This document shows positions 1,706 to 59,665 of a DNA stretch of 64,000 nucleotides, in pieces. Made by a program: the position numbers and the translations under genes. The DNA comes from Chloroflexota bacterium (GTDB lineage: Bacteria > Chloroflexota > UBA11872 > VXOZ01). Within the stretch, counting starts at the first letter, position 1; every line of letters begins with the position of its first letter. The notes below the pieces were generated by a model. That model worked only from the letters and a program-made list of their open reading frames with translations. It ran no database searches and was not told the origin of the DNA. The stretch spans positions 1,952,001 to 2,016,000 of the forward strand of contig OZ219802.1 in NCBI GenBank assembly GCA_964291655.2, given 5' to 3'.

Positions 1706-1973
1706 TGTAAGTGTTGACTATTTCGTTGACCGAATCCTCTACCCAATTGGCAGTGTTGACAGATCATGTCATTCCGAGCGAAGCGTCGAACCCTGTTCGC
1801 GGAATCTAGGGCCCATGCAACGTGTCGCCCGATAGGCTCAACATCTTAGATTCCGCGCTCCGAGCGACTCTTCGCTGCGCTCCGTTCGGAATGACATATG
1901 TACTGTTCATGTAGAGTACTGCGTTCAGCTGCTCTTGTTCTCAAATCTGTCAACGAATTACCTGACACTTACA
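1706..1973. mobile_element. MITE family A, copy 1 (TGT...ACA ends, internal inverted REP pair)
   Basis: Ends TGTAAGTGTTGAC.. and ..CCTGACACTTACA. Similar to the copies at 10267, 26840, 42485, 53634 and 59410. Confidence 0.85.
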
Positions 1974-2109
1974 AGAATGACAGATTGAGGAACAGATTCA
2001 GACGCGAGTACGTTCGGCACTTCGCAAACCTGCACGATGTAAGTCCAAACCCACCAATCCCGGAAGTCCTTTTACCTATGCCCGTCAGCGCCAAGCACTC
2101 TCGTCTGCA

Positions 2110-2763
2110 TCAAACCTCGCTTGCGCTCCACTCCTGCAGCACGTCAATGGCCGTGAGCAACGACTCGCATGCGGCATCGGCTGCCGCGATCGTTGTTTCG
2201 CCTTCCGGCACGGCAATACACCGCATGCCGGCCGCTTTCGCCGACCTCACGCCGCGGGGGCTATCTTCCAGCGCCACACACTCGCCCGGCTTCACTCCCA
2301 GCCGCGCCGCCGCCAGCAGATAGAGCGCCGGGTCCGGCTTACCCTCTACGACCTCATCTCCTGTTGCTACTGCCTGGAAGTAGGAGCGGATACCTAGCAC
2401 CTCGAGCACCACGTCAATGTAGACCTTGTCTCCGGATGAGGCCGACCCGCAGCGCCATCCCCGGTCGCGCACCCACTCCAGGGCCTCCCGCAGCCCGGGC
2501 TTCGGCCCCAGCCGTTCTCGGATAAGCGCGATCAGGATTGCGTGGTAGCGGTCCAGCATCTCCTCCGGCTCTGCCGCGAACCGGCCCCGCGCATGGTGCA
2601 GCCGGAAGATATCGATGCTGCGCTTCCCCAGGCTCTCTGCCGCGTCGGTAGGATAGGTTGGAAATCCGCACTCGCGGCCGAGCTCATGCCATGCGGCGCG
2701 GTGGAGCGGTTCGCTGTCTGCCATGAGACCGTCTACGTCGAAGATGACGCCAGCAATATTCAT
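2110..2763 (-). CDS. HAD-superfamily phosphatase (beta-PGM/CbbY-like)
   Basis: FDVDGL motif I, GKPDP, LEDSPRG. Start at MNIAGVIFD. Confidence 0.9.
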   Translation of the reverse strand: MNIAGVIFDVDGLMADSEPLHRAAWHELGRECGFPTYPTDAAESLGKRSIDIFRLHHARGRFAAEPEEMLDRYHAILIALIRERLGPKPGLREALEWVRDRGWRCGSASSGDKVYIDVVLEVLGIRSYFQAVATGDEVVEGKPDPALYLLAAARLGVKPGECVALEDSPRGVRSAKAAGMRCIAVPEGETTIAAADAACESLLTAIDVLQEWSASEV

Positions 2764-2770
2764 CGGCAGC

Positions 2771-3889
2771 CTAGAAGTGGTCAAGGTTCCACATGTACGG
2801 ATGTCCTCCTGGAAAGAGTATGTCGATAATAGCAACATCTTGCTCCGCAACACAGGACGGGAACTCCAAGCGCAACTCCCCAAGGCTGCGGTAGCCCATC
2901 AAGAGCTGCAATAGATTTTCCTGTGGCAGGTTAATTGTGATTGTGCGACCGGCGCCGATTTCCATCTCCGCCCGCTCGGCATCGCAGACGACTGCCACCT
3001 TGCCGACACTACCCTCCAATCCCGACGTTCGAACTCGTTCTTCCAAAGTCTCTTTGAGCGCCACGGCGAGGCCGTCCAGATTGACGATGCGGCCCATGCC
3101 TCCCTGATTGTGCGAGTACTCGATTTCCTGACGAAAGCCGATTGACCGCAAGACTGCCAACATCGGCGCATCCGGCGGCATCTCAAGGTCGATCCACTCC
3201 GCTCGCTGCCGGACTGCCTCAGTTGCAAGCGCTCGGATGAGACTTGAGCCGGCAGTTGCCGCAGTTATCCCAGGCGCCACGAACTCATACGGCCGTGTAT
3301 ACCACATGGACGCAGAGCGCCAACCGTGCTCACCCAAGGCGTATGCGACCGGTTTCCCATTCTCTTCTGCGACCAGAATGCGGCTCGGCTCTTGAAACCA
3401 CTCTTCCGTGGCATCGCGCCAGGGCAGGAATGCACTTTCTGAACGCTTGGCGGCCCCGCTTCGTCCGCGGGTCTCCTCATTGTAGATAGCCAGGAGAGCT
3501 TTCGAGTCAGCTTGCCCGGCTTCACGCACCGGCAACAACTCGCCTAATGCTTCAGCCGCTTGCGTTCTTACTCGTATGAGACTCTTCGCCGGCAGCACGG
3601 TTGCGTAGCCAATGCGGTGGTAGAAGCCAGGGATTCCAAAGAGAATCGAGACCAGATACCCTTCCCGGCACATATACGCAACGGCATCTTCCATGAGCCG
3701 CCGACCATAGCCTCTGCCACGGTGCGCGGGACTAACCCGGACGCTCGCCACTCCCCCCATGCGCAACCACGTTGATCCCAAGCGCATTTCCCGGTCCTCG
3801 ATGGTTAGCCGAGCTACCTCTACCCCGTCTACAACCAGAGCTAATTTCTGGCGATTTCCCTCTGGCGTAGACCGAAGTGACGTCTCCAT
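2771..3889 (-). CDS. Eis-like GNAT N-acetyltransferase
   Basis: GGVASVRVSPAHRGRGYGRRLM acetyl-CoA motif, GFYHRIGY. GGAGG RBS before METSLR. Confidence 0.85.
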   Translation of the reverse strand: METSLRSTPEGNRQKLALVVDGVEVARLTIEDREMRLGSTWLRMGGVASVRVSPAHRGRGYGRRLMEDAVAYMCREGYLVSILFGIPGFYHRIGYATVLPAKSLIRVRTQAAEALGELLPVREAGQADSKALLAIYNEETRGRSGAAKRSESAFLPWRDATEEWFQEPSRILVAEENGKPVAYALGEHGWRSASMWYTRPYEFVAPGITAATAGSSLIRALATEAVRQRAEWIDLEMPPDAPMLAVLRSIGFRQEIEYSHNQGGMGRIVNLDGLAVALKETLEERVRTSGLEGSVGKVAVVCDAERAEMEIGAGRTITINLPQENLLQLLMGYRSLGELRLEFPSCVAEQDVAIIDILFPGGHPYMWNLDHF

Positions 3890-4109
3890 GTAAGTCCTCC
3901 CAAACCTGTCCCGACCTGCACCGGCAGCAATCTCAGCGGGAACCTCTTGGGGCAGTGCTGTCTCATGCCGGCATGCTGAGGGCACACCATAATCCCTGCA
4001 CGCGGACCCCCTGCCGTATTGGACATTGCCCTTTGCTGTGCGAAGACATTTTACTCGCCTGGAAGCTAGGTTACTAGCGGGAGATTGACTTGGCTTCTGG
4101 CTGAGAAAA

Positions 4110-4480
4110 GTCAATTTAAAAGACTATAATCATAATCTTCATAAGGCCTGTTGAGAGTGGGGAAAAGGCCTGAAATCGCTGCGCTGGGGCGCTGCGGCAC
4201 GCAGGATAAGTTCATGGGAAAACAGTCTGAATTGCTGGGCAAAACTGCGAATCCAGGAGAGAGTATGGGGTATCTTTCGTAGGTGGGGAAAAGCCCCAAA
4301 CTTCTCCCCAAGGCTTAGCATGGCGCAGGGCGCGATTAGCGCCTTTTAACCGGAGATTGTCAGTGCTTAACTCACCAAACGGTCAAGTTGTTTGAAAGGC
4401 GGATTCTTAGCTCTAGACCTAGGATATCCCCATTTTGGCTAATTTATCCACTGGTTTAGGGCGAGTTATCCACAGCAGGG
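4110..4480 (-). other. Probable chromosomal replication origin (oriC)
   Basis: Minus strand reads TTTTCCCCA-CTCTCAACA-GGCC-T-TAT GAA GAT TAT GAT TAT-AGTCTTTTAAATT. Perfect TTATCCACA at 4466-4474. Near-consensus boxes at 4158, 4284, 4302, 4424 and 4444. Low-GC non-coding gap. Confidence 0.7.
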
Positions 4481-4551
4481 CGTTCTTGGGCGCTCATCGG
4501 CAAAGTACATTGGATTATGTAGAGGCAGTAGTCCACTTATGTCAGCTTTTT

Positions 4552-6564
4552 CTAATTGAGTGCTGAATTCGGAGTGGGGATTGCGGACTTTTCGAGTGAT
4601 TCTAGGTGGCGATACTTCTCTATATACGCATTGACGGTCATTACGACGGTAGCGTGGCTCCAGGTAAGCGGAGAGACGCTGAGAGGCGCGTTTGTAAAGG
4701 GATGAACCTGTTCGGCGAGACAGCCGCTCTCAAGGCGTCGCTGCTCGACCCAAAGCAGGATTTCCTTTGCAGGCTGCAGTTCCTCTAGAGAGGTGGCTTT
4801 CGCGATGTACCACTCCGCCAGCCAGAGGGTACAAATAAACCACGGGTTGCCAGGAACGACGGCAATATTGTTGCTGATTTGATGGTAGTAGTCGTTCTCG
4901 TACCGCGCGATGCCACCCACATCGGTCTTCACCCACAAGCGCTCCCGCACCGTCTCCATCATCTTAACCACCAGCGGATCGTCAGGTTCGAGCATGCCGA
5001 AATACCAGAGGGCGTAGGTCGCGCTGTCGATGGTCGTGTCATGGCGAACGGTACCGTCGGGCAGAGGCGTTACCATGCGTGAAAAGAGACCGGTGTCGGG
5101 GTTGATCATGTGCGTGAGAGCCGCTAGCTTAAGTTCCTCCGCGGTACGACGGTAACTATCGGTATAGGTGCTCTCGCCAAACGCCTCCGTAAAGTTAGCC
5201 GCTGCCTGGAGACCGGCATAGACGGTGGCTACCGTATGCGCGTGAACCCCGTGGCGTTCTTCCCAGAGATCGTACGACGGTACCGGCAGGCCGGTGGTAA
5301 GGTCGCGGTAGAGGCTCATGAACTGGGCAGCGGGCTTAATGAATGACGCATAGAACGGCTTTACAAACTCTACGTCCCAGTACTTCTCGAAGTGCTGCCA
5401 CAGCGCCCAGATAACCAGCGCGGTCTCGTCCTCCTGGATCGGGTGCTGGCGGGATCCGTCCGGCGCCGCCCAGGGATGCCAGGAGGAACCGACCGATCCA
5501 TCCGGATTATACTTGTGCATCATGTAGCCCTGGGGCGTGATGGTGCGCAAGCAGAAGCCGAAGAAGCGGCGCGAAATCTCGCCATAGCCGGCGCGGCTCA
5601 GCGCGTAGGCAACCAGCGCGCCGTCGCGCGGCCACATGTAGGAGTAGGTGTCGCGGCCGAACTGGGCAATGTCGTTGTCGTTGGCGGCCAGAATCGCGCC
5701 TTCGTGGTCCGTTTGGGTCTGGATCGTGAGGAGACTGCGATTGAAGAGCGCGCCAATTTCAGTCGGCAGATCGGCTAACGAAAAACCCTCTTTGCGCACC
5801 CAGTGCCGCCAGTATTCCTGCGTGCGGTAGAGCACCGCCGCGGGCCCCACCTGGCGGATGTGGCGCTCGATGTCTTCCACAGCCATAGCATCAGAGCCGA
5901 CTGCCATCCAGTAGTAGACGGTAGCGGATTCGCGCGCGGGAACGGTAACGCATATCGCGCCGGTACTATCCACAGAGCCTTGCGCGATGGGGTTTCCTTC
6001 CAGGCGGCCGTCCTCGGCATCGCGCCAGGTGCCTTCCAGCCCGCCAACGTTCTTGGTGCCGGTCGCGTATGAATCCAGGCCGATGTCGGTCCCACTCATC
6101 GCGTTCATCCAGAAGAAAGTCTTGCCCTTATAGTGAATAAGCGCACGGTGGCGCGGATCGTAATATGCCGTGTCCCCAATGCTGATACCGCCGAGAGAGA
6201 AGTTATGGTGGAAGAAGAGGCGCACCTCGCGCTCGGAATCCGCCTGGTTCTCCACGGTTATACGCCGCAGGAAGACATTCCGGCTATAGTCAACGGCATC
6301 GTTGAGGTTGAGCTTTACGCGGAGGCGGTCGTTCTGCGCCGTGACGTCGGTGACGAGCGTATCTTCCTTGTACCGCAGCGACTTCTGCCAGGACCGGTCG
6401 TGGATCCAAGCGAAAAGTCCATCCACCCAGACGCCGAATTGGAAAGGGTGCCCCTGTGCGTGGTCCTCTTGCCCGACGTGGGGGTAGTACACGTCACGGA
6501 TACGGTAATCGCTATCGAAGCAGACGAGCAGGCGGCCGTTTCCTACTGGTAAGTCACGTGGCAT
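4552..6564 (-). CDS. Glycoside hydrolase family 15 (glucoamylase-like)
   Basis: YSYMWPRDGA, QEDET, DLWEER, LAEQV and PLTWSHA motifs. 670 aa. Confidence 0.92.
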   Translation of the reverse strand: MPRDLPVGNGRLLVCFDSDYRIRDVYYPHVGQEDHAQGHPFQFGVWVDGLFAWIHDRSWQKSLRYKEDTLVTDVTAQNDRLRVKLNLNDAVDYSRNVFLRRITVENQADSEREVRLFFHHNFSLGGISIGDTAYYDPRHRALIHYKGKTFFWMNAMSGTDIGLDSYATGTKNVGGLEGTWRDAEDGRLEGNPIAQGSVDSTGAICVTVPARESATVYYWMAVGSDAMAVEDIERHIRQVGPAAVLYRTQEYWRHWVRKEGFSLADLPTEIGALFNRSLLTIQTQTDHEGAILAANDNDIAQFGRDTYSYMWPRDGALVAYALSRAGYGEISRRFFGFCLRTITPQGYMMHKYNPDGSVGSSWHPWAAPDGSRQHPIQEDETALVIWALWQHFEKYWDVEFVKPFYASFIKPAAQFMSLYRDLTTGLPVPSYDLWEERHGVHAHTVATVYAGLQAAANFTEAFGESTYTDSYRRTAEELKLAALTHMINPDTGLFSRMVTPLPDGTVRHDTTIDSATYALWYFGMLEPDDPLVVKMMETVRERLWVKTDVGGIARYENDYYHQISNNIAVVPGNPWFICTLWLAEWYIAKATSLEELQPAKEILLWVEQRRLESGCLAEQVHPFTNAPLSVSPLTWSHATVVMTVNAYIEKYRHLESLEKSAIPTPNSALN

Positions 6565-7042
6565 GTTCTACAGCCTAAGCAACAGATGATGTAGCGATAC
6601 CGACGAATCAAGGGTTTTCACGTAATGCCCGCGCGCCACCGTGAACGCGCCGGCAAACCCCCGCCGGGAATACGCGACTGCACCGGCGGTGAATTCGCAG
6701 AATTCGGTTAGAGCGACTCTTGCCGGGGTGTTCCCAGCCTGACGACTCCCATTGTACAGACCAATGCGCCACACGCAACCTTGGCGCGTCTGCAAACGAC
6801 CTGCAACCGAAATACCTCTTGCGCCATGCTATCATGGGATGGTGTTGCGTCTCGCCGGGGCTCATGGGGCGGCGCGAGACGAGGCGGGACGCGAAGAGGG
6901 CGACAGCCCTGCCTTCACCTGCGTATTCACGCAATCTACAGCCGTCGGAGCCTTGGCAGGCGGGCAGAGTGCTACTGGCAACGCAGGCTCAGCAGCCTGC
7001 AAGCGGGATACCCTCCGGGACAAGAGTACACGAAGAGAGAAC

Positions 7043-8482: not shown

Positions 8483-8536
8483 GACTTGGAGATTACACGC
8501 TCCCACTTGCGAGGCTGTCAAATTTCGCTAACCTCA

Positions 8537-9431: not shown

Positions 9432-10196
9432 ATGATCGCTCCCCGCTCCCGAGTAACACCGCCTTTTGTGCTCGCCGCTGTTGTGGCGCTGGTGGGGGTG
9501 TGGGCGTTGGCGGCGATACTGGTTGGCAATCCGATCTTGCCGGTGCCGTGGGTGGTGGCGGAGGCCTTCTGGCGCGAGTGGACGAACGGCTTGTGGGAAG
9601 ACCTGCTCGTCAGCGCCTACCGCGTGGTGCTGAGCATCATCATTGCCGTAATCTTGGCGGCGCCGGCGGGCATGGCCGTGGGGCAAGCGCCCATGATAGA
9701 CCGCATTGCCAGCCCGCTCATCTACCTCATCTACCCCGTGCCCAAGATCGTGCTGCTGCCCATCATCATGCTCTTCCTGGGTATCGGCGAGACCTCCAAG
9801 ATCTTCATTATCAGCCTCATTCTGTACTTTCAGATTCTTGTGCTCACGCGTGACGCCGCTTACGCCGTGCGGCCTGAACTCGTGCTCTCGGTGCGTTCGC
9901 TGGGTGCGCGCCGCCGCCACTTGCTGCGCTACGTGTACTTTCCCGCGGTACTGCCGTCTATCCTCAGCGCGTTGCGCATCACCAGCGGTACGGCCATAGC
10001 CGTACTTTTCTTCACGGAGACTTTCGCCACACAGAGCGGACTGGGGTACTTCATCGTGGTGCAGTCATGGGGACGCGTGGACTACCCCGCCATGTACGCG
10101 GGGATTGTGGCGATGGCCGCGCTCGGTCTCAGCCTGTACGCCGTCATCGAGTTCCTCGACCGCCGCTTCTGCGCCTGGGTGCAAGCGGGTGTGTGA
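9432..10196 (+). CDS. ABC transporter permease, SsuC/TauC/NitT type
   Basis: Multiple TM helices, YPVPKIVLLP, EAA-like loop SVRSLGA..LLRYVYFPA, QSGLGYFI. Confidence 0.9.
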   Translation: MIAPRSRVTPPFVLAAVVALVGVWALAAILVGNPILPVPWVVAEAFWREWTNGLWEDLLVSAYRVVLSIIIAVILAAPAGMAVGQAPMIDRIASPLIYLIYPVPKIVLLPIIMLFLGIGETSKIFIISLILYFQILVLTRDAAYAVRPELVLSVRSLGARRRHLLRYVYFPAVLPSILSALRITSGTAIAVLFFTETFATQSGLGYFIVVQSWGRVDYPAMYAGIVAMAALGLSLYAVIEFLDRRFCAWVQAGV

Positions 10197-10266
10197 CGCT
10201 GCTGTGGCGGGTGAGAACAAAGCACGCGAATGGTCCATACGATACGCCGATTCGTGTCGTCATTCC

Positions 10267-10534
10267 TGTAAGTGTCAGGTAATTCGTTGACAGATTCTAG
10301 AACAAAAGCAACCTTTCGCAGTGTTAGACATGACTAGTACACATGTCATTCCGAACGAAGCGCAGCGAAGAGTCGCTCTTAGCGCGGAATCTAGTGTGTT
10401 GAAGCCGTTAAAGTGCGTTGAGCAGGGACCCTAGATTCCGCGAACCCTGTTCGGCGCTGCGCTCGGAATGACATGCACGGTCGGCACTGACCAATAAATA
10501 GAAGATTCTGTCAACGAATTACTCAGCACATACA
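10267..10534. mobile_element. MITE family A, copy 2
   Basis: ATTCC duplicated at 10262-10266 and 10535-10539. Removing the element restores the REP GTCATTCCGGCGCAAGCCGGAATCC. Confidence 0.88.
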
Positions 10535-10602
10535 ATTCCGGCGCAAGCCGGAATCCAGCGCCTGCGGCCGCATGATGAACAATGACGCCACCGCGCGCCT
10601 AA

Positions 10603-11400
10603 TCACTTCCTGATGATATAGACCTCCGCCACCAGATTGGGACGCATCGTTTCGAGCGTTTCTTCACCCGCCGGCTGCGCGCGCACCCACGTCTGCACCT
10701 CTGCCAAGATGTGGTCATACGCTCGGTCAGGCACCGCCCAGAACTCCGTATGGAGCTTTAGCCGCAGGTGTTCTAGCGCTGTCCCGTACGTGATGGTCTT
10801 TTCCCAAGTTAGGTCGTGGGTGTCGACGGCGAGCGACGTCGCACTCTTTGCAAGCAGATATTCGCCGAGTTCACTGCGGTCTTTGATACCTACGTAGAGA
10901 TTGGTATAGCCCCGCTCCCGACATCGGGCGGAAAACTGCCTTCTTACCGCATGTTTGAAGGCGCCTTTTTCGTTGATGTGCATAAACAGGCCGCCATTCC
11001 TCGTCACCCGGATAAGCTCATCAACGGCCGATTGCCAGTTGCCGACGTGTTGAAAGAGCTTGGAAACCACAACCGCATCATAGGAATCTTGTGGGTCTTC
11101 TAGTGCACGCACGTCGCCCAGCCTGAACTCTGCACTGTCACCAGGTTCCAGTTTCTGCCGGGCGATCTCTAGCATGGCCGGCGACACGTCCACACCTACC
11201 ACGCTATGGCCACTCTTTATCAGCGGAAGGGAGACTTGTGCGGTGCCGCAGCCGGCATCGAGTATGCGGCCCAGATCGGCGAAGCCAGCTTTCGCGAAAA
11301 TGCGTTCGAAACACGTATGTAAGAGCCCAAAGGGAATGGTGCGCGTTGCGTCATAGTGCGGCGCGACCGGAGTGTAATCAGAGGTGTCTTGAAATCCCAC
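10603..11400 (-). CDS. Class I SAM-dependent methyltransferase
   Basis: ILDAGCGTA, GVDVSPAML and YDAVV motifs. Confidence 0.88.
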   Translation of the reverse strand: MGFQDTSDYTPVAPHYDATRTIPFGLLHTCFERIFAKAGFADLGRILDAGCGTAQVSLPLIKSGHSVVGVDVSPAMLEIARQKLEPGDSAEFRLGDVRALEDPQDSYDAVVVSKLFQHVGNWQSAVDELIRVTRNGGLFMHINEKGAFKHAVRRQFSARCRERGYTNLYVGIKDRSELGEYLLAKSATSLAVDTHDLTWEKTITYGTALEHLRLKLHTEFWAVPDRAYDHILAEVQTWVRAQPAGEETLETMRPNLVAEVYIIRK

Positions 11401-26770: not shown

Positions 26771-26839
26771 ACGGGGTAGTCCTCCTCATCAGGTTGTCGG
26801 ATGGTATTCAGAATCGGTTTCAAAAGCGCTCGTCATTCC

Positions 26840-27106
26840 TGTAAGTGTTGAGTAATTCGCTGACGAAAACTTCTACTCACTGGACTGTGTCGAACGTACA
26901 TGTCATTCCGAGCGAAGCGTCGAACCCTGTTCGCGGAATCTAGGGTCCATGCTTCACACAGTACACTGGCTTCAGCACTCTAGATTCCGCGCTAAGAGCG
27001 ACACTTCGCTGCGCTCCGTTCGGAATGACTTGTATGCAGGCAAGCGCAGAGTCTTGCTCCTGTGATTCTTCTATCAAATCTGTCAACGAATTACCTGACT
27101 CTTGCA
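26840..27106. mobile_element. MITE family A, copy 3
   Basis: ATTCC duplicated at 26835-26839 and 27107-27111. Interrupts the REP GTCATTCCCGCGCAAGCGGGAATCC. Confidence 0.88.
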
Positions 27107-27316
27107 ATTCCCGCGCAAGCGGGAATCCATCTTCGCCGCGCACACCCTGGATTCCGGCTTTCGCCGGAATGACGATCAGAAAGCTGACCACAAACGAGGC
27201 AGCGCATAATTCCAGCGCACATCACTGCGTCGGTCAAATCAGTCCATGCTATTCTATACGAGACATTGAACCGCCCGATCACGATTGGCCCACTTGCAGC
27301 CGCGAGCAGCCGCCCT

Positions 27317-33984: not shown

Positions 33985-34146
33985 GGGCTGACAGGGTAGG
34001 TATTCTATAATCGACTTTCACATGTCATTCCGAACGGAGCGCAGCGGAGTGAGGAATATCAAATACACCCTTGCCGGGGCGCATCCGGAGCGGACTCTAG
34101 ATTCCTCGCTGCGCTCGGAATGACAGTTTCATACCCCTGTCAGCTC
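33985..34146. mobile_element. MITE family D (TIR GGGCTGACAGGG / CCCTGTCAGCTC)
   Basis: CCTCT duplicated at 33980-33984 and 34147-34151 inside a CCCTCTCCC-GGGAGAGGG hairpin. Carries an inverted GTCATTCCG REP pair. Confidence 0.7.
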
Positions 34147-34273: not shown

Positions 34274-35995
<1,722 letters not shown>

Positions 35996-41229: not shown

Positions 41230-41810
41230 GTGCTGTTTCTCCTTTGCCCCGACAAGGGCGGAACATCCTTAGCCGCAAAGGGGCCCAAAAACGGCTCGTC
41301 ACTCACGCGCGAACCACCCAACGTCCCGTCATTCGTATGTTGAAAGAGGCGGGCATATGGGCGAATGTAAGAAAGTAACGCAAGGGGCGCGTCGTCCGTC
41401 ATTCCCGCGAAAGCGGGAATCCATCTTCTCTCTTCATCCGAGTGCAGAGCACTCCCAGGGGCGGGGAACAAGCCCCCGCGCTACATTGATTCTCCATTGC
41501 ACCCAGTAGAAATCTCCTGCCGCAATGCAGTTCGTCATTGCCCCTCGCCAGTCAAGCATTGTCCCGTCTTGTCCCGCGCAAGCGGGAACCCATCCTTTGG
41601 CGCCTTTTGCGCACGGTACATGCTATGGAACGGTGCAGTAGCCGCTGCGCAACATTGCTCTTTTCCTGCACGCGAAGCGTTCTAAGAGGCGGGGGACAAG
41701 CCCCCGCGCTACGAGGAGCTTGTGATCCCTCACCCGAACCCTCTGCCCAAGGAGAGAGAATTACCTTGTAATGCGGGACATCCTTTTGCGTAGACTCTAT
41801 CATGAAATGT

Positions 41811-42484: not shown

Positions 42485-42707
42485 TGTAAGTGTTGAGTAA
42501 TTCGTTGACAGAATTCTCTCTCAAATTGGCAGTGTTGACAGATCATGTCATTCCGAGCGGAGCGAGGAATCTAGAGTCCCTGCTCAGCACTCTAGATTCC
42601 TCACTCCGCTACGCTTCGTTCGGAATGACATGTGTACTAGTCATGACTAACACTGCGAAAGGTTGCTTTTCTTCTCAAATCTGTCAACGAATTACCTGAC
42701 ATTTACA
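42485..42707. mobile_element. MITE family A, copy 4, followed by an extra arm of another copy (42708-42785)
   Basis: TGTAAGTGTTGAGTAATTCGTTGACAGA..TCTGTCAACGAATTACCTGACATTTACA. The adjacent remnant is approximately the reverse complement of the copy-3 left arm. Confidence 0.85.
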
Positions 42708-42844
42708 GGAATGACATGTACGGTCGACACAGTCCAGTGAGTAGACGCTTTTCTCAACGAATTACGCAACACATACCGGAATGACTTTGGCTGTCAGCGA
42801 ATTTCGCAACGCATACAGGAGAGACATTTGTCGGACGCCATGCG

Positions 42845-53337: not shown

Positions 53338-53468
53338 GTGATTCCGAGCGCCTCACTTGTCACACCGAGCGCATCACTAGTCATTTCGAGCGCCTCACTT
53401 GTCACTCCAAGCGCCTCATTGGTCACTTCGAGCGCCCTATTTGTCATTTCGAGCGCAGCGAGAAATCT
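53338..53468. repeat. Five 21-bp tandem units ending in a complete GTCATTTCGAGCGCAGCGAGAAATCT REP
   Basis: Units start at 53338, 53359, 53380, 53401 and 53422. The full REP starts at 53443. Confidence 0.85.
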
Positions 53469-53633
53469 AAGAACTCCCGGCCTCAACCCAGCGATTTTGC
53501 ATTCCACGGGGCAGAAAGGCAAGGGGGCATTCGATTATAGATGATGTACAGCTTGAGTGCCACTTCCGAGTCTTCTTGCGATGTTAGTAGATATAGACGT
53601 GATAACTTGGCCGAGCTGCTTAATTGTCATTCC

Positions 53634-53874
53634 TGTAAGTGTTGAGTAATTAGTTGACAGAATTCCCTTTCCATTGTGAGGAGTTGACGCTGCATGTCAT
53701 TCCGAGCGCAGCGAGGAATCTAGAATCAATGTCGAACATGGTCCATACGGCTCAGTACTTTAGATTCCTCACTCCGCTGCGCTCCGTTCGGAATGACATG
53801 CATGCAGGCAGGCACAGAGTTCTGCTCCCAAGTTTCTTCTACCAAATCTGTCAACGAATTACCCGACATCTAGA
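53634..53874. mobile_element. MITE family A, copy 5
   Basis: ATTCC duplicated at 53629-53633 and 53875-53879. Interrupts a GTCATTCCGAGC..GCGTCGAACC REP. Confidence 0.85.
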
Positions 53875-54065
53875 ATTCCGAGCTCAGCGTCGAACCCGGT
53901 TCGCGGGATTTAAGAGTTCCTGCACTCTAGATTCTTCGTTGCTGCGCTCCTCAGAATGACAGATGAGGTGCGGCTTTGAGCGTGAGTGCGTGCGATGTGT
54001 CGCATTTCCGTACGGTGTAAGCCCAATTCTGCTAATGCTGGATTTCTCGTTACCAGGTCGACAAA

Positions 54066-54719
54066 CTACGCTTCCGGCGGCGCTGCCGGCTGCGGCTCTT
54101 TACAAGAGCTCGTCTGAGCGGCTGTCGTAGCGCGCCTATTGAAGCGCGTCATAGTCTTTTCTAGACCCTCAGTAACGAGGCTCAGCGCGGCTTCCACTGT
54201 CCGCTCTATCGTCTTTTCGATCTCAGGCTGCTCCTCTGGCAAGAAATCGCTGAGCACATGGGCAATTGGGTCCATTCCTGCCGGCGGACGTCCCACGCCG
54301 ATGCGCAGGCGCACGAATTCGCGGTGGCCCAATGCGTCAATGACTGATTCGATGCCGCGATGCCCGCCGTGGCTCCCGCCGGCGCGGAGGCGCAGACGCG
54401 CGAACTCCAGGTCTATGTCGTCGTAGACCACCGCAATGTTGTCCGATGGGATCTTATAGAACCGCGACGCTGCGGCGACAGCAGAGCCGCTAGCATTCAT
54501 GAAAGTAGTCGGTTTGAGAAGCAGCATGGCATTCCGGCCCACCATCGCTTTACCAAACCAGCCCTTAAAGCGCCGGTCCGAGACGGACACGCCGGTCTTG
54601 GCCGCAATGCGGTCGAGCACGTGAAAGCCGACGTTATGGCGGTTGGCGGCATATCTCTTCTCTGGATTGCCCAGCCCGACGATGAGCCAGCGGGTGGGGT
54701 CTTCCGGTGTCGCTGTCAT
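54066..54719 (-). CDS. pth: Peptidyl-tRNA hydrolase
   Basis: LIVGLGNP, RHNVGF, KPTTFMNASG, YDDIDL, GGHRG, RLRIGVGRP. Confidence 0.97.
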   Translation of the reverse strand: MTATPEDPTRWLIVGLGNPEKRYAANRHNVGFHVLDRIAAKTGVSVSDRRFKGWFGKAMVGRNAMLLLKPTTFMNASGSAVAAASRFYKIPSDNIAVVYDDIDLEFARLRLRAGGSHGGHRGIESVIDALGHREFVRLRIGVGRPPAGMDPIAHVLSDFLPEEQPEIEKTIERTVEAALSLVTEGLEKTMTRFNRRATTAAQTSSCKEPQPAAPPEA

Positions 54720-54816
54720 CTGAATACCTGGATTAGCTTTTCAATACGCATATCTTTTTGAGGATTCCCCTCACGCCCGTTTCGAGTACGGGGCAGGCTC
54801 TAACCCTCTCCCCCAG

Positions 54817-55050
54817 GAGACCTTTGCGCAACTCAAGCGGTAGCAAAATAGTTCCCTCTCCCTCGACGGGAGAGGGCTAGGGTGAGGGTGGATCTCCTGA
54901 AATCTCTCCATATGCACACCAAATCTGCCCTGATACGTCTTGACACTGCCCAGCGTAAAGGGCCATCGTAGCAAAAAGACCCCCTCACCCCAACCTTCTC
55001 CCCCAGGAGAGGGAGTGCCCTGCTTGAAAGTGGGGTTATGCAAAGGTCTC
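54817..55050. mobile_element. MITE family B copy without the nested element
   Basis: GAGACCTTTGCGCAAC..GTTATGCAAAGGTCTC. CCCAG duplicated. Core nearly identical to 47765-48293. Confidence 0.85.
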
Positions 55051-55392
55051 CCCAGGGAGAGGGAACCGGAAAACGTAGCGCGGGGGCGTGTCCCCCGCTC
55101 CGGTAGCTAGTTGCCCCGCACAGGAAGATGGATTCCCGCTTTCGCGGGAATGACGAATCAAAACTCCGACTTACCCGACAAATTCCATTGTCACCCAATG
55201 GCGTTGGCTCCGTTCGTGGCCCAGGGGCGTGTCCCCCGCTCTTGTTCACCTTCAGCAAGCACCATCTCAAGTGTCTTAAGGACTCCCCTCACCCTAACCC
55301 TCTCCCCAAGGAGAGGGGATCAGAGGCCATGGCGTGGGGGCGTGTCCCCCGCTCTGGTGCATCTTCAGCAATCACCGGCACGAAATTCGCAT

Positions 55393-56286
55393 CTAACTTC
55401 CAATCAGCAGGCCGTCCGCTTTCACCGCCTGATACAGCGCGAACCATGCATCGAGCGAGAGTTCCTGCGGACGGCACTGCGGAGAGATTCCCGCTTCTTC
55501 TAGCAGCCAGCGCATATGCTCGTCATCAATCCGGAGGAGCGAGCGGACGGAGTTATGTACCTGCTTGCGCCGCTGGGAGAAGCCCGCCTGGGCGAGTCGC
55601 AGCACGTCAGGCACCGCTTCTACGGGAAAATACGGCTGTGGGCGCTTCACCACTTCCACCACGGCGGAGTTCACCTGCGGCGGAGGAAAGAACGCCTGCG
55701 CGGGTACGGCAAAGAGGTGGGTGGTCTCCGCATAGGTCTGCATAAGCAGGGAGAGATAGCTCATGTCGCCCGGCGCTGCACTGACCCGCGCCGCAACTTC
55801 CCGTTGCAACATCACGACCATACGTTGCGGACCGGCCGGATGCACTATGAGTTGCCTGATCACCGGGGTTGCCACGCTGTAGGGCAGGTTCGCCGCCAGC
55901 ATGTACGGTGATTCTCCAAAGTAAGGGGAGGGATCAAACGCCACGGCATCCTGGTGGACCATCTCGACGTTTGTATGGAAAGCCAGTGTAGCGTCCAGCA
56001 AGGCTAACATGCGCGCATCGATTTCCACAGTCACCACCCGCTCGGCCACGTCCGCGAGGCAAACGGTAAGACTGCCCAAACCGGGTCCGACCTCCAGGAT
56101 GCGGTCGTGGTCTCCCTGCTGCACGTGCCGCATGATCGCGCGCAGCACGCCCGCGTCAGCCAACAGGTGCTGGCCGAGCTTGCGGTTCAGGCGCAAGTCC
56201 ACCTGACGCAGCAGCATGCGCATCGTGCGCGGACGGCACAGATCGCGTGCTTGCGCGGGAATGTCAAAGACCTTGGAATTAAGCAT
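55393..56286 (-). CDS. rsmA: 16S rRNA m6,2A dimethyltransferase
   Basis: KLGQHLL, LEVGPGLGSLT, VEID, ANLPY, MLQREVA, FFPPPQVNSAV, FSQRRK. Confidence 0.96.
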   Translation of the reverse strand: MLNSKVFDIPAQARDLCRPRTMRMLLRQVDLRLNRKLGQHLLADAGVLRAIMRHVQQGDHDRILEVGPGLGSLTVCLADVAERVVTVEIDARMLALLDATLAFHTNVEMVHQDAVAFDPSPYFGESPYMLAANLPYSVATPVIRQLIVHPAGPQRMVVMLQREVAARVSAAPGDMSYLSLLMQTYAETTHLFAVPAQAFFPPPQVNSAVVEVVKRPQPYFPVEAVPDVLRLAQAGFSQRRKQVHNSVRSLLRIDDEHMRWLLEEAGISPQCRPQELSLDAWFALYQAVKADGLLIGS

Positions 56287-56314
56287 GTCTCACGTCTACG
56301 CGGTAAGCAGCGCC

Positions 56315-56537
56315 CGGTAGCGCAGGTTTGCAACTTGTGGGTACTCCCGGGTAGCGCAGTTCAGCAACCGGCAGTCCCATCCGGCAAGGCAGGTCCGGGT
56401 CACCAACACCTTCCGGTAGCGCAGGTTTGTAACCTGCGGGTACTCCCGGGTAGCGCAGTTCAGCAACCGGCAGTCCCATCCGGCAAAGCAGGTCTGGGTC
56501 ACCAACACCTTCCGGTAGCGCAGGTTTGTAACCTGCG
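56315..56537. repeat. About 2.3 tandem copies of a 99-bp unit built from GTAGCGCAGG REPs
   Basis: CGGTAGCGCAGGTTTG.AAC.TG recurs at a 99-bp period, with near-identical intervening sequence. Confidence 0.85.
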
Positions 56538-56645
56538 TCGTCACAGTCTTGCACCGAAACGTGACCCCTGTAGTGCAGAACGCCCTTAGTTCTTATAATA
56601 CCGTAGAGACGAGAACGACATTCTTCCACGTAAAGGAGCAGAACC

Positions 56646-57368
56646 ATGCGGGTGCAGGCAATCGGCGCGCATCCTGACGACATCGAGCTGCTGTGCGCGG
56701 GCACACTGGCAAAGTACGCGGCGCAGGGGCACCACGTGACGATGTGCTACGTGTGCAACGGCGGGCTGGGCCACGTGGAGATCATGCCGCCCGAACTCAA
56801 AGAGGTGCGCAAGCAGGAGTCAAAGAACAGTGCCGACGTGATCGGCGCGGACTTTCAATGGCTCGACATCGACGACGCGGACGTGCGCCAGAGTACCAAC
56901 GAGGCGCTGGCGCGTTTGGTCGACGCCGTGCGCGCGGCCCAGCCGGACGTGATCATCACCCACGCGCCCAACGATTACATGGACGATCACCGCTTGGTGG
57001 GCGAACTGGTGCTCAAGGCGAGCTTCGACGCCACTATTCCCCATCTTGTTTCGAAGCAGGAGAATCCGGCACAACTCGTGCCCATCTTCCACATGGATAC
57101 CCTGATGGGCGTGGACTTTCTGCCGGAAATGTGGGTGGACATTAGCGAGACCATCGAGATTAAGCGGCAGATGCTCGCGTGCCATGAGAGCCAGTACGCT
57201 TGGCTGAAAGAACATGACAACATCGACTACATCGATTCCATGGTCACGGTGGCGAAGTACCGGGGCTTGCAGGTCGGCACGCCGTATGCGGAAGGCTTCC
57301 GACAGGTGCGCGTCTGGGGCCGCACGACCACCGTGCCGCTGCTGCCGACGGACATCGCCCGCGGGTAG
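56646..57368 (+). CDS. PIG-L/LmbE-family deacetylase
   Basis: AHPDDIE, PDVIITH..DYMDDH, HESQ, YAEGF. AAGGAG RBS. Confidence 0.93.
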   Translation: MRVQAIGAHPDDIELLCAGTLAKYAAQGHHVTMCYVCNGGLGHVEIMPPELKEVRKQESKNSADVIGADFQWLDIDDADVRQSTNEALARLVDAVRAAQPDVIITHAPNDYMDDHRLVGELVLKASFDATIPHLVSKQENPAQLVPIFHMDTLMGVDFLPEMWVDISETIEIKRQMLACHESQYAWLKEHDNIDYIDSMVTVAKYRGLQVGTPYAEGFRQVRVWGRTTTVPLLPTDIARG

Positions 57369-57464
57369 CAAGGTACGGGCCGCAGTCGCTGCTGGATAAT
57401 GAGAACTCAAGTTGCTTTTCCGGCGCAATTGCAACTTTCAGATCGAAAAGTGTCAATTATGTCG

Positions 57465-57686
57465 TCAATCGCAACCAGAGTACTGAGTGGTAGGCGGTGG
57501 CAGCGGCTTGCCGTCAACGCGATAGAGGTGGATGACTTCGTCTACTATCTGGCGCAGTTCCGCGAATACCTGCCATTTGTCGTCGCCATGGCAGCCGCCG
57601 TAAAACAGGCCCGGAGCGCTGCCCACATAGCACTGATCGTCCTCCGACCACTCGACGACTTTGGCGTAGCGGGCACTATCTTTCAT
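57465..57686 (-). CDS. HicB-like antitoxin
   Basis: VEWSEDDQCYVGSAPGL..GCHGD..DGKPLPPP. Confidence 0.8.
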   Translation of the reverse strand: MKDSARYAKVVEWSEDDQCYVGSAPGLFYGGCHGDDKWQVFAELRQIVDEVIHLYRVDGKPLPPPTTQYSGCD

Positions 57687-57762
57687 TTCTGGACTACTCT
57701 ATCGTGGCATTCACGGCACGGACTTGGTAGTTCTTCGCGTCACTGCTTGGACTGCCATGACG

Positions 57763-58746
57763 TCAGACCAACTCCCGGTTTACGAAGTAGCACCCACCTT
57801 CATTACACTTGTTCGGATAAAAACACTCTCGTTCTGGCTTGTTCGGACACATTACCCTTTCCGCTTCTGCCACGCAGTGTGGGCACTCCCTATCACCGTC
57901 GTAGTCAAAGTATTCGCCGTGGGTCAAGCAAATCCGTGTAGCGCATTTGTCGCAAGGACCGTATGACTCTTTTTCCGCCTGAGGCAGGTTAAACCTGTCA
58001 TGGTACGGGTCCTGGTACAAAAACCAGTTCCCTTGTATTTGGTCACAACTGGTACACACGTTAGCCAAGTACTTTGCTCCGACTGTGGCACTGAATCTTC
58101 GTTCTAGGGTCACGCCGCTGTCCCGGACAAAGTCTAACTCCTCTTTGGTGAATTCATCCTGCTCTAGGGCTTGGCCGTCTTTGTAGCCAGTAGCAACTTT
58201 GATGTTTTGCTCACAGTTCCAACAGTCTTTGAGACTGACAGCAACCGTTCGCAGTGGTAGCGGAGTGGAGCAGTCTATGCACTTGGGTCGCTGGCAAAGC
58301 AGATTGTGTGCATCAATGTTGAGCCGCTTTGCTGCGAGGTCTTCAAGCCTTGCCTTTACGTTTAGCGAGGCATCAAGAGCGCGGTTGCGTCTCTCCCCAA
58401 CGAATTCTCGTGGCGCATTCAGGTGGAACTCAACGACTTCAATGTTGTTCCCCACTGCATATTCGTGGACATTACTTTCGGGAATGTGCTTGTCCGCTAT
58501 TTCTATGAATCTGATCGGATTCCAATCTATATCAAACATGGACAGATCGGGGCGAACCGTTCCTACACTCTTGTTTCTTTCGACAGTTGCTACGTTCTCA
58601 ACTAGGTTGATGATAAGTTCCTCCCTACATTCGTTGCACATTGCGGTAGCTGGCAGGCTTTTGCCTAGGTTCACTCTGATGTGCAACTCAAGTATGGAGA
58701 CTGCACGCTCGTGCGGTGTCTCTCTTATTTGACTTCTCTTGGCCAC
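57763..58746 (-). CDS. Cys-rich hypothetical protein with a PD-(D/E)XK-like (CoiA-like) segment
   Basis: RPDL..FIEIADKH plus several CxxC pairs. Low GC. Confidence 0.65.
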   Translation of the reverse strand: MAKRSQIRETPHERAVSILELHIRVNLGKSLPATAMCNECREELIINLVENVATVERNKSVGTVRPDLSMFDIDWNPIRFIEIADKHIPESNVHEYAVGNNIEVVEFHLNAPREFVGERRNRALDASLNVKARLEDLAAKRLNIDAHNLLCQRPKCIDCSTPLPLRTVAVSLKDCWNCEQNIKVATGYKDGQALEQDEFTKEELDFVRDSGVTLERRFSATVGAKYLANVCTSCDQIQGNWFLYQDPYHDRFNLPQAEKESYGPCDKCATRICLTHGEYFDYDGDRECPHCVAEAERVMCPNKPERECFYPNKCNEGGCYFVNRELV

Positions 58747-58983
58747 CGGCCTATCTCTAACGGTTCAGTCGCTATTCGGATCTCTGTTATTGGATTGCAT
58801 GTGAGATTTTCCCCTGACAACGCAAATAGCAACCCATGCAATTCCAATTTGGAAACCGGTCCACGAATGCTTGGCGACAAGTCTGGATTCCAGATAAACG
58901 GCAAGCTGCAGTGCTTAGGGACAGAGGAAAGGTTGGCAACTGCTCCGGCTCCACATGAGGCGTAGCCGTGAGCACTCCGAACT

Positions 58984-59057
58984 TGGCTGGGGAACCAGGA
59001 TTCGAACCTGGACTTATGGATCCAGAATCCACTGTCCTACCATTAGACGATTCCCCA
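58984..59057 (-). tRNA. tRNA-Gln (anticodon CTG)
   Basis: TGGGGAATCGTCTAATGGTAGGACAGTGGATTCTGGATCCATAAGTCCAGGTTCGAATCCTGGTTCCCCAGCCA folds as a cloverleaf. CCA is encoded. Confidence 0.97.
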
Positions 59058-59409
59058 TGGCAGCCGCCGCTAGTGCGACCATTTTCATGGTACTAAGTGG
59101 CTTTGGCTCGCGTCAACAGACAAGGTGGTGCTTTATGCTCCACCAGCCAAACGAGAGCGATATGAGGTTTGGTCCGTCATTAGTAAGTTGAAGAAGGCGG
59201 GCACATGAGCGGATACAAGAAGGAAACGCGAGGGCAAGTTTTCCGTCATTTCCGCGATAAGCCTGCCCCGTACTTGATACGGGGCGGGAATCCATCTTCC
59301 TCTGGCTCATTGCCGTCCACTCGGTTGCAGGCCTAGGACACACTTCCCTCACGCCGTCCCCTGGACTCCGGCTTTCGCCGGAGTGACGGTGCGGTTGGTC
59401 CGCCGCAAT

Positions 59410-59665
59410 TGTAGATGTCAGGTAATTCGTTGACAGATTTGAGAACAAAAGCAGCTGAACGCAGTACTCTACATGAACAGTACACATGTCATTCCGAGCG
59501 GAGCGTCGAACCCTGTTCGCGGAATCTAGGGCCCATGCAACGTGTCGCCCAATAGGCTCAACATCTTAGATTCCTCTCTTCGCTGCGCTCCGTTCGGAAT
59601 GACATGATCTGTCAACACTGCCAATTTGGGAGAGAATTCTGTCAACGAATTACTCAACACTTACA
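59410..59665. mobile_element. MITE family A, copy 6 (arms in opposite orientation to copy 1)
   Basis: GCAAT duplicated at 59405-59409 and 59666-59670. The target is GTCATTGC on the minus strand. Confidence 0.88.

Follow-up and report, generated by a model that had tools for sequence, protein, structure and literature searches.

The TGT...ACA element that occurs six times in the window (the whole stretch of 64,000 nucleotides of Chloroflexota DNA analysed here) is best explained as a MITE derived from an insertion sequence (IS) of the IS481 type, one that inserts at GTC|ATTCC in hairpin repeats of the NTS/SRM type and carries two of these targets as cargo. We put the probability of this explanation as a whole at about 0.88. 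The anatomy of the element, its target and target duplication (TSD), the nesting of copies, an empty site, and the partner IS are direct observations.

Copies of the MITE in the window

A sequence-only reading of this DNA had proposed six copies sharing a TIR, and the copies are real: the 28-nt TIR pattern (allowing up to three mismatches) matches the window 12 times, as six plus/minus pairs, against an expectation of 0 in 100 shuffles. The copies (Table 1) have a mean column identity of 76% in their alignment, and each contains one inverted GTCATTCCGA...TCGGAATGAC pair and, within each arm, a repeated GTTGACAGA motif. They are located between larger open frames.

The tag GTCATTCC stands to the left of copies 2, 3, and 5, all of which have exact duplications. 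The tag of copy 6 is on the right side, and copies 1 and 4 have inverted flanks in place of a direct duplication. Copy 5 interrupts a standalone element B (an inverted pair of SRM repeats) in its left arm; this element B runs on to about 53965. The targets of the MITE come from different repeat subfamilies, as had been claimed: a GGCG-type hairpin, a CGCG-type hairpin (the target of copy 3, which fits the NTS consensus), and a GAGCG-type long unit.

Table 1. MITE copies, remnants, and free target repeats in the window (positions are those of the window)
Feature	Position	Strand	Flanks, target, and cargo
MITE copy 1, 268 bp	1706..1973	+	Inverted flanks GTCATTCC...AGAATGAC, no direct TSD; cargo pair 1768-1895
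MITE copy 2, 268 bp	10267..10534	-	TSD ATTCC 10262-10266 and 10535-10539; target GGCG-type hairpin repeat; cargo 10345-10472
MITE copy 3, 267 bp	26840..27106	+	TSD ATTCC 26835-26839 and 27107-27111; cargo 26902-27029
Standalone unoccupied element B (inverted SRM pair)	34024..34124	.	Arms are those flanking the small GIY-YIG gene at G000:C1:823705
Free unoccupied short hairpin repeat GTCATTCCCGCGAAAGCGGGAATCCAT, example	41398..41425	+	
MITE copy 4, 223 bp, short-cargo form	42485..42707	+	Inverted flanks, between GTTATTCC and GGAATGAC, no direct TSD; cargo 42547-42629
70-bp remnant of another MITE copy	42708..42777	-	One arm plus GTCATTCC of its cargo; abutted by copy 4
Solo diverged 28-bp TIR, 6 mismatches	42790..42817	-	Followed by GGAGAGAC
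MITE copy 5, 241 bp	53634..53874	+	TSD ATTCC 53629-53633 and 53875-53879; cargo 53696-53797
MITE copy 6, 256 bp	59410..59665	-	Variant TSD GCAAT 59405-59409 and 59666-59670; target GTCATTGC on minus strand; cargo 59488-59603
Further free short hairpin repeats	GTC at 55154, 29597, 27173	-	

Precision of insertion

Across this genome the family amounts to 130 ends at about 70 loci. Copies are 200-268 bp long, with 28-bp TIRs and no transposase ORF, in keeping with the size, TIRs, and copy number of a MITE, and among the genomes searched the variant was detected in this genus only. Fifty pairs of ends lie 150-420 bp apart. A 5-bp TSD is exact in 30 of these and has one mismatch in 8, while the remaining 12 have no good TSD. 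Flanks were tabulated for the 36 pairs with at most one mismatch in the TSD and a length of at most 300 (14 of the 50 were dropped). Here position -8 is G in 36 of 36, -7 is T in 35, and -6 is C in 35, and GTC directly precedes the duplication in 34-36 of the 36. Variant duplications (ATTCT twice, ATTAC, ATTGC, and others) are the same on both sides of the element and are therefore true target duplications, as the sequence-only reading had supposed. Either end of the MITE may face the GTC side (18 cases versus 13, plus 5 with variant ends), and the strand of the GTC|ATTCC target does not switch along the chromosome.

The partner IS, described below, was sampled at 79 loci from Chloroflexota/Dehalococcoidia MAG records. 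Its TSD is exact at 66 loci and has one mismatch at 2; GTC lies just 5' of the duplication in all 68, and ATTCC is found in 52 of the 67 copies having GTC on one side. The targeting of a GTCATT-type palindromic repeat, first proposed from the six copies, thus holds for MITE and IS.

Might the element have no site specificity of its own, landing widely and surviving only in intergenic repeats? The location of the window copies would suit this idea, as would the distribution of GTCATTCC, which occurs 479 times in the genome (the mean for shuffled 8-mers is 97) and about 100 times at sites outside repeats that seem unused by the element. Precision to a single nucleotide, however, is beyond the reach of selection. 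Insertions are placed precisely 3' of GTC and duplicate 5 bp, in the MITE and IS proportions just given. The same is seen in at least three subfamilies of repeats, in about 20 genomes, and at a few sites outside hairpin repeats (GTCCTTCT, GTCATAAT, GTCATCAT). Survival as the source of the pattern is accordingly highly improbable.

It is also very unlikely that GTCATTCC belongs to the element rather than to the target, in which case the TIR would be the longer GTCATTCCTGT...ACAGGAATGAC and the targeting an artefact of a misplaced boundary. Five of the 50 MITE pairs (copies 1 and 4 among them) and about 4 of the 79 IS copies do have GTCATTCC...GGAATGAC on their two sides, but in 38 of the 50 pairs the flanks are direct, not inverted, and the exact duplication of variant pentamers likewise speaks against the idea. 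So do orthologous sites in the congener G003. Where copy 2 would stand, G003 has an empty site, GTCATTCCGGCGCAAGCCAGAATCC, consisting of one intact repeat with a single ATTCC; this one clean empty orthologous site (n = 1) bears out the earlier claim that excision of the element restores an intact repeat. Copy 4 occupies the place expected for the interior of a long SRM pair, and there G003 has element B whole and unoccupied, its repeat pair being complete and its outer GTCATTCC and GGAATGAC the same. It follows that the inverted flanks are part of the host repeat. Copy 1 is common to both genomes, its orthologous site in G003 being occupied and having the same flanks.

The target repeat and the cargo

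The NTS/SRM hairpin repeat is the substrate, in other bacteria, of Ssn GIY-YIG single-strand nucleases, among them SsnA, whose cut in single-stranded DNA lies a few nucleotides upstream of the repeat; the consensus published for NTS is CGTCATTCCCGCGMAVGCGGGAATCYRG (PMC11893778). The targeted repeat, previously taken for a REP, matches this repeat of the Ssn system, with a nuclease role here that is putative. The NTS consensus finds 33 sites in the genome at up to one mismatch and 148 at up to three, and the SRM pattern finds 186, as against 19 in the reversed genome, which served as a control. The repeats fall into several subfamilies, each flanking a small GIY-YIG gene. There are three such genes, encoding about 95 amino acids (open frames of 99-134 aa), each between convergent repeats and with Pfam GIY-YIG scores of 55-61 bits; sequence searches of NCBIfam and PDB gave no match that would name them. 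The genome's single Y1_Tnp-like ORF has no GTCATTCC repeat beside it, which is not what would be expected of a RAYT-associated REP.

The cargo of the MITE is an inverted SRM pair, that is, two target repeats, so each copy adds two potential landing sites. These are in use: 12 of the 130 MITE ends lead directly into the inner side of a further copy, at distances that match expectation, and 5 of the 79 IS copies have an intact MITE as host and occupy precisely its internal GTCATTCC. That the element carries its own target had been read from the six copies, and the genome agrees. The sequence-only reading went on to a self-reinforcing cycle, which, in the selective sense, would be one way to read this anatomy. 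Inverted SRM pairs were counted 72 times, and 55 of them adjoin at least one MITE arm. The arms of the cargo pair are identical to those of a GIY-YIG gene cassette, and the long repeat pairs resemble a miniature form of that cassette without the gene.

This identity, and the presence of a Y1_Tnp-like ORF, might suggest that it is the repeat system itself, through the Ssn GIY-YIG nuclease or else a REP-associated tyrosine transposase, and not a DDE transposase that moves or multiplies the copies. There is very little chance of this, as a DDE-encoding IS has identical TIRs and 5-bp duplications, no GTCATTCC repeats flank the Y1_Tnp ORF, and the published cut of SsnA falls in single-stranded DNA outside the repeat, not at GTC|ATTCC.

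An autonomous partner

The window had been said to hold no transposase gene, and the cognate gene is in fact absent from the whole assembly as well (the best tblastn match has 29% identity). The long element with the same ends and a DDE transposase whose existence had been anticipated is found in relatives, but no TnsC/TniQ partner comes with it. This autonomous partner, present in congeners and other Dehalococcoidia MAGs, is an IS of 1,046-1,061 bp with TGT ends, a 5-bp TSD, and a single ORF of 323-333 aa, without programmed frameshift, encoding a DDE transposase in which D167, D234, and E276 are conserved. Two copies in genome G006 (L013 and L014) share the TIRs of the MITE and are 1,061 bp long, filled by a single 333-aa ORF. 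The NCBIfam profile for IS481 (NF033577) gives the transposase 206 bits, less than the NCBI curated cut-off of 224, and those for IS3 and IS21 give 82 and 57. Members of the IS481 family are about 1-1.3 kb long, with TGT...ACA termini and a short TSD.

The end variants of the MITE correspond to those of the IS, GTGTCAGG to its left end and GTGTTGAC to its right. The left arms of the two agree for about 45 bp. Outside the TIR, the right arm of the MITE is not convincingly similar to the right end of the IS, scoring 15, below the crossed control (21). The MITE is probably a descendant of an IS481-type IS of about 1.05 kb with one DDE (rve) transposase.

Multi-site ends with TGT...ACA and a 5-bp duplication are a feature of the Tn7/Tn5053/Mu group. 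The attribution to that group made in the sequence-only reading, as a miniature targeted through TnsC/TniQ-like accessory proteins, is the least probable of the alternatives and was rejected: the TGT...ACA ends, the 5-bp duplication, and the repeated GTTGACAGA do recall such ends, but the sole long elements with these TIRs are the single-ORF ISs just described, whose ORF scores as IS481 above IS3 and IS21 by a wide margin, every TIR core in five further genomes pairs at about 1,006 bp, and the only TIR-bounded interval of about 8 kb in the genome contains housekeeping genes (citrate synthase and a penicillin-binding protein among them) and no transposition genes, leaving no multi-gene transposition module between these ends.

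Proposed mechanism

The MITE has 28-bp TIRs that start with TGT, one with the GTGTCAGG variant and the other with GTGTTGAG, and element B stands between its two arms; according to the model of an IS481-derived MITE, these are the two ends of the IS, retained. Transposase would be provided in trans by full-length copies of the IS, which are present in sister genomes and absent from this assembly. The target, the GTC|ATTCC motif at the 5' edge of NTS/SRM-type hairpin repeats, would presumably be read as double-stranded sequence. Cuts staggered by 5 bp, made directly 3' of GTC in GTC|ATTCC|S, would be joined to the ends of the element, and with this spacing ATTCC would be duplicated. A second insertion may have hit the same repeat pair or the same cargo, and recombination of the direct copies would then have produced the copies with inverted flanks and the 70-bp arm stubs; the 12 pairs without a good TSD may also have originated by recombination.

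Targeting by this element is a tractable case, the IS481-type transposase acting with single-nucleotide precision on a motif of 8-9 bp. About 100 independent insertions in about 20 genomes constitute natural replicates for the study of how a one-protein DDE system reads its target. In these genomes, the MITE and the target repeats, along with two other repeat-targeting IS types, account for breaks in assemblies and intergenic variability.

Perhaps the two systems are coupled more closely, IS/MITE and Ssn repeats forming a two-layer selfish network, though we think this unlikely. The transposase might read just the GTC-plus-palindrome edge that the Ssn nuclease needs for cleavage; each insertion would remove the GTC of one repeat, and the cargo would seed two fresh intact repeats. 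The MITE, gaining safe landing sites, might then be the main spreader of long repeat pairs, a role suggested by the 55 pairs (of 72) that adjoin its arms. If so, an interrupted repeat lacking GTC would be bound but uncut, going by published mutagenesis, and the repeat landscape, nuclease activity, and spread of the transposon would co-evolve.

Comparison with known systems

Like the IS481 family (type IS481, from Bordetella pertussis), the partner IS has one DDE/rve ORF without frameshift, a length of about 1 kb, TGT ends, and a short duplication, and the family provides its best NCBIfam model, yet with 206 bits against a cut-off of 224. IS481 itself targets NCTAGN and makes a 6-bp duplication, whereas the partner IS targets GTC|ATTCC in a hairpin repeat and makes one of 5 bp. 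The other IS481-type transposases of this genome also have about 70-80 aa more at the C-terminus, an extension that is missing from the partner transposase.

Several ISs target REPs, among them IS1397/ISKpn1 and ISPsy8 (IS3 family), IS621, ISPa11, and ISPpu9/10 (IS110), and ISRm22 (IS4), and they share with the partner IS a fixed insertion place in an extragenic palindrome, their specificity lying in the transposase (PMC3184786, PMC1525189). One survey covers five families (IS3, IS110, IS4, IS256, and IS5), and its text makes no mention of IS481 (PMC1525189). The present case differs in that the target is an NTS/SRM repeat and that the IS has given rise to a MITE of high copy number which itself bears this target.

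The repeat is nearly the published NTS consensus of the NTS/dRS3/SRM and Ssn system, and the small GIY-YIG genes are flanked in the same way (PMC11893778). Insertion here, however, takes place at the boundary of GTC and palindrome, while Ssn cuts a few nucleotides upstream of the repeat. The recently described Ssn/NTS repeats of Neisseria have near-identical counterparts in uncultured Chloroflexota, where they are transposon hot spots. In Neisseria, the Nf1 prophage integrates into dRS3, whose palindromic core is the target of the mobile element's recombinase (PMC7058167). A palindromic core is targeted by a mobile element in both cases, but the invader here is a DDE IS with its MITE rather than a filamentous phage, and the host belongs to an uncultured lineage of Chloroflexota.

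Finally, the element resembles bacterial MITEs such as Correia elements and MITEAba12: it is small, has TIRs and a TSD, encodes no transposase, is present in many copies, and shares its ends with a cognate IS. It differs from bacterial MITEs in general in its strict sequence-specific targeting, in a cargo that consists of two target repeats, and in the frequent nesting of copies within that cargo.

Six copies in the window and their counterparts in related genomes

A 28-nt pattern describing the terminal inverted repeat (TIR) matches the window 12 times at up to 3 mismatches, with none expected from 100 shuffles. The matches form six facing pairs, which fall exactly on the coordinates of the six MITE copies that a sequence-only reading of this DNA had proposed. 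The copies align with a mean column identity of 76%. That reading also described four exact 5-bp duplications (ATTCC three times, GCAAT once) and an internal cargo made of the MITE's own target; one inverted GTCATTCCGA...TCGGAATGAC pair indeed lies within each copy. Since TIR pairs, flanks, duplications, and cargo are as stated, the observation is confirmed in all particulars. No Rfam family matches the MITE; the sole match in the window is a tRNA gene 350 bp from copy 6. Elsewhere in the window, just downstream of a standalone element B (an inverted pair of hairpin repeats), four GTCATTCC units at 34320, 34347, 34374, and 34401, with an exact spacing of 27 bp, make up a tandem array whose hairpin repeats have partly decayed.

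Positions of the MITE copies and other features (C1 and C2, contigs of the studied genome; L numbers, fetched loci)
Feature	Position	Properties
MITE copy 1	window, from 1706	268 bp; inverted flanks GTCATTCC...AGAATGAC, without direct duplication
MITE copy 2	window, from 10267	268 bp; left flank GTCATTCC; exact ATTCC/ATTCC
MITE copy 3	window, from 26840	267 bp; left flank GTCATTCC; exact ATTCC/ATTCC
MITE copy 4	window, from 42485	223 bp; inverted flanks GTTATTCC...GGAATGAC, without direct duplication
MITE copy 5	window, from 53634	241 bp; left flank GTCATTCC; exact ATTCC/ATTCC
MITE copy 6	window, from 59410	256 bp; GCAAT/GCAAT; GTCATTGC on the other strand
Standalone element B	window 34024-34124	
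Tandem array	window 34320-34430	
tRNA gene	window 58987-59057	minus strand
GIY-YIG gene	C2:1711914-1712132	
GIY-YIG gene	C2:1259810-1260028	
GIY-YIG gene	C1:823705-823920	
Other IS481-family IS, example copies	C2:997549-998813; C2:1755174-1756460	present on C1 and C2
IS with DDE_Tnp_1_6/DUF772 transposase	C2:1158653-1160321 and about 28 other places	1,669 bp; in CCCTCTCC-type repeat
Y1_Tnp (HUH tyrosine transposase-like) ORF	C2:2523481-2523714 (L012)	276 aa
IS nested in MITE, left internal GTCATTCC	L061, L063, L065	
IS nested in MITE, right internal GTCATTCC	L053, L064	

Orthologous regions of five congeners were compared. In the congener G003, the locus of copy 2 is an uninterrupted GTCATTCCGGCGCAAGCCAGAATCC in which ATTCC occurs once, the exact sequence left after removal of the MITE and one duplicate, so the expectation that excision restores the repeat is borne out by an empty site in a relative. 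Where the window has copy 4, G003 shows element B intact and unoccupied, bounded by GTCATTCC and GGAATGAC as in the window; because element B is complete there, MITE copy 4 stands where the interior of B was. Copy 1 is present in G003 too, inverted flanks included. Its cargo is long in the studied genome (window 1768-1895) and shorter at the same locus in G003 (L016), a difference that suggests conversion or indels in the cargo after insertion.

Contigs built from the reads of four runs enter the MITE from both flanks in two runs, and none spans from flank to flank. Since the contigs are fragmented at the repeat, the lack of a flank-joining contig is informative neither way. Among public runs X1-X16, those labelled as sponge metagenomes contain part of the stretch at window 9900-10900, with 89-99% of sampled words present in four coded runs.

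Genome-wide census and target

The assembly, in which the window spans C2:1952001-2016000, comprises 3.47 Mb in two contigs. A 16-nt TIR core occurs 122 times (at most 2 substitutions), and the full TIR (at most 6 substitutions) gives 130 ends at 70 loci, with two ends at 45 loci, one at 19, three at 3, and four at 3. Fifty pairs of ends are spaced 150-420 bp apart. The 5-bp duplication is exact in 30 of these, has one mismatch in 8, and has at least two in 12, five of which have inverted-copy flanks.

The flank tally kept 36 of the 50 pairs (at most one mismatch in the duplication and a length of at most 300 bp), 3 of the other 14 having been dropped for length and 11 for the duplication. Immediately 5' of the duplication stand, in this order, G (36/36), T (35/36), and C (35/36), and the duplicated pentamer is ATTCC in 25 of the 36. 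Where the pentamer departs from ATTCC (ATTCT twice, ATTAC, ATTGC, and others), the two flanks still agree, hence the duplication is a true one. The GTC bias and the duplication seen in the window extend to the whole genome. Either MITE end may face the GTC side (18 vs 13, plus 5 with variant ends). The 8-mer GTCATTCC occurs 479 times on both strands; 40 shuffled 8-mers average 97 occurrences and reach 198 at most. The TIR core (GTAATTCG) and the target (GTCATTCC) are alike at 6 of 8 positions, a resemblance with an estimated chance of about 1 in 5 and not counted as evidence.

Copies in the genome share a median identity of 72%, with a nearest-neighbour median of 94% and a maximum of 98%, and fall into three length classes. 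These identities and lengths point to several bursts of the MITE, none very recent. Repeats, MITE, and IS copies cluster on C2 between 1.0 and 2.5 Mb, near the cumulative GC-skew minimum (about 1.5 Mb), and are scarce in its first 0.8 Mb; C1 has only four paired MITE copies.

An autonomous partner, probably of the IS481 type

All 16 other genomes of the genus contain the TIR core (0 with a reversed-pattern control); outside the genus it is present in 1 of 24, as a lone match with one mismatch. In the congener G006, two core pairs with a spacing of 1,021 bp delimit elements of 1,061 bp (L013 and L014) with the same 28-bp TIRs. Each has a single ORF of 333 aa; translation probably starts at the next ATG, giving the 323 aa of the database entries. 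The encoded transposase has the domains rve, rve_2, and rve_3, and against NCBIfam it scores 206 bits for IS481 (curated cut-off 224), 82 for IS3, and 57 for IS21. Residues D167, D234, and E276 are kept in an alignment with two other IS481-type transposases of the studied genome, both above the cut-off. A long element with the same ends and a DDE transposase, which the sequence-only reading had suggested seeking, is thus at hand in G006 and other MAGs. The same reading had assigned the MITE to the Mu/Tn7/Tn5053 group, and in this it erred: the partner is a single-ORF IS with IS481 as its best model, and the element, very probably an IS481-type MITE, is not a relative of Tn7, Mu, or Tn5053.

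A survey of species-representative genomes took the best 80 of 181 related stretches, whose record titles all name Chloroflexota or Dehalococcoidia MAGs and whose proteins are 76-100% identical; one short locus was left out and 79 were examined. Within this set, the IS measures 1,046-1,061 bp, and its 5-bp duplication is exact at 66 loci and has one mismatch at 2. GTC immediately precedes the duplication on one strand in 68/68. Where GTC is on one side only, the pentamer is ATTCC in 52/67 (the others being ATTCT, GTTCC, ATCCC, ATAAT, ATTCA, GTTGG, and ATCAT), and the end next to GTC is the right one in 44 and the left one in 23. Junctions of two IS copies, L045 and L046, have runs of 9 C or 9 G in place of ATTCC/GGAAT, probably long-read homopolymer errors of that assembly.

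With the same TIRs, GTC-ATTCC target, and 5-bp duplication in both, IS and MITE share ends, target, and duplication length. Variants of the MITE TIR match the left (GTGTCAGG) and right (GTGTTGAC) ends of the IS; the left arm of the MITE resembles the IS over about 45 bp, and in the right arm no convincing likeness extends past the TIR. MITE-sized TIR pairs are absent from the 1.5-kb flanks of the best 80 of 181 IS loci and from five non-genus genomes, each with 6-9 full-length IS. Since those five genomes carry the full-length IS only, the MITE form seems to have arisen once.

The studied genome itself has no gene for the cognate transposase: the best tblastn match is 29% identical and part of a different IS, and the IS DNA matches the genome at IS ends only. 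Its MITEs are therefore orphans unless a copy is hidden in two assembly gaps, both of which end in yet another IS, of 1,669 bp. The sole Y1_Tnp ORF, which might have pointed to a RAYT, lacks GTCATTCC flanks. An interval of about 8 kb between two solo TIRs (C2:2184117-2192095), considered as a possible long element, encodes citrate synthase, a PBP, a solute-binding protein, and a PD-(D/E)XK protein, without a transposase. All 28 rve matches in the genome belong to two other IS481-family IS (24 copies of 1,265 bp and 4 of 1,287 bp) with different ends, TGTAYAGAC, and a different target. All 28 lie inside a second repeat family, CCCCTCACCCCnnCCCTCTCCCC..GGGGAGAGGG, so this genome has more than one IS481-type element that targets repeats; scored with a fixed 5-bp rule, 15 of the 28 have an exact duplication, and G/C runs leave the others ambiguous. 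The 1,669-bp IS explains the assembly breaks, since both contigs, C1 and C2, terminate within copies of it.

The target repeat and its GIY-YIG genes

According to PMC11893778, the dRS3 palindrome is part of the Neisseria NTS repeat, CGTCATTCCCGCGMAVGCGGGAATCYRG, and wider Ssn-related motifs (SRM) are found in several phyla. By the same account, SsnA, a 94-aa GIY-YIG nuclease, binds the repeats as single-stranded hairpins and cuts a few nucleotides upstream, depending mainly on the three nucleotides before the palindrome, GTC. In the studied genome, 33 sites fit the NTS consensus with no more than 1 mismatch and 148 with no more than 3, and there are 186 sites of the SRM pattern vs 19 in the reversed genome. 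It also has three small GIY-YIG genes (about 95 aa; open frames 99-134 aa; Pfam 55-61 bits), each surrounded by convergent GTCATTCC repeats of a different subfamily, the architecture published for ssnA. Their products found no naming match in NCBIfam or PDB sequences. The arms around the gene on C1 are those of the standalone element B in the window, so element B resembles a miniature of that cassette without its gene. The target of the transposon is the motif common to all the repeat subfamilies.

Cargo, nesting, and odd copies

Inverted GTCATTCCGA...TCGGAATGAC pairs 60-170 bp apart number 72 in the genome. Of these, 44 have a MITE arm on each side and 11 on one side only; the other 17, of which two are double counts due to overlap and one lies within a diverged copy, adjoin no arm. 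Long repeat pairs are thus for the most part MITE cargo. Insertions do occur in the cargo sites: 12 of the 130 MITE ends run into another copy at its inner face, at 42, 53-54, or 152-162 nt, and 5 of the 79 full-length IS (from the best 80 of 181) lie exactly in an internal GTCATTCC of an otherwise intact MITE, with ATTCC duplicated.

Structures in which a 70-bp arm precedes a full copy retain the outer duplication of the host copy, e.g., GGAAT/GGAAT at C2:808622/808947. They may have arisen by direct-orientation nested insertion, then recombination between the repeated parts. Similarly, the form of copies 1 and 4, with the element between GTCATTCC and GGAATGAC, could reflect insertions in both arms of one pair, followed by recombination.

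A model of targeting

The elements have DDE-type ends and a fixed 5-bp stagger, and they insert in both orientations at a conserved 8-9-bp target, GTC|ATTCC|S, beyond which the sequence is variable. It is probably the double-stranded motif, and not the hairpin, that the transposase or its complex with the element ends recognises directly. A few insertion sites lie outside hairpin repeats, yet have GTC and an ATTCC-like pentamer. Were the target single-stranded, on the lagging strand, a strand bias would point to it; along C2 there is none, and no strand switch. The MITE would be moved in trans, and transposition is presumably copy-out-paste-in, as proposed for IS3/IS481 relatives. One may speculate, from published mutagenesis, that a repeat with an insertion would still be bound and be poorly cut by the nuclease, as ACA replaces GTC, and also that the cargo might add two intact repeats per insertion.

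Comparison with known systems

The finding is real and its first description accurate. No description of this MITE or IS, nor of repeat targeting by the IS481 family, was found in the open-access papers searched. According to PMC1525189 and PMC3184786, REP targeting is known for the IS3, IS110, IS4, IS256, and IS5 families; IS481 does not occur in the text of PMC1525189. In Neisseria, the dRS3 core is the target of the Nf1 prophage integrase (PMC7058167), and Chloroflexota may already figure among the species listed in PMC11893778. A repeat-targeting IS with a MITE derivative is of a kind already known; what is new, as far as open-access searches reach, is the IS family, the Ssn repeat as target, and a cargo made of the target itself.
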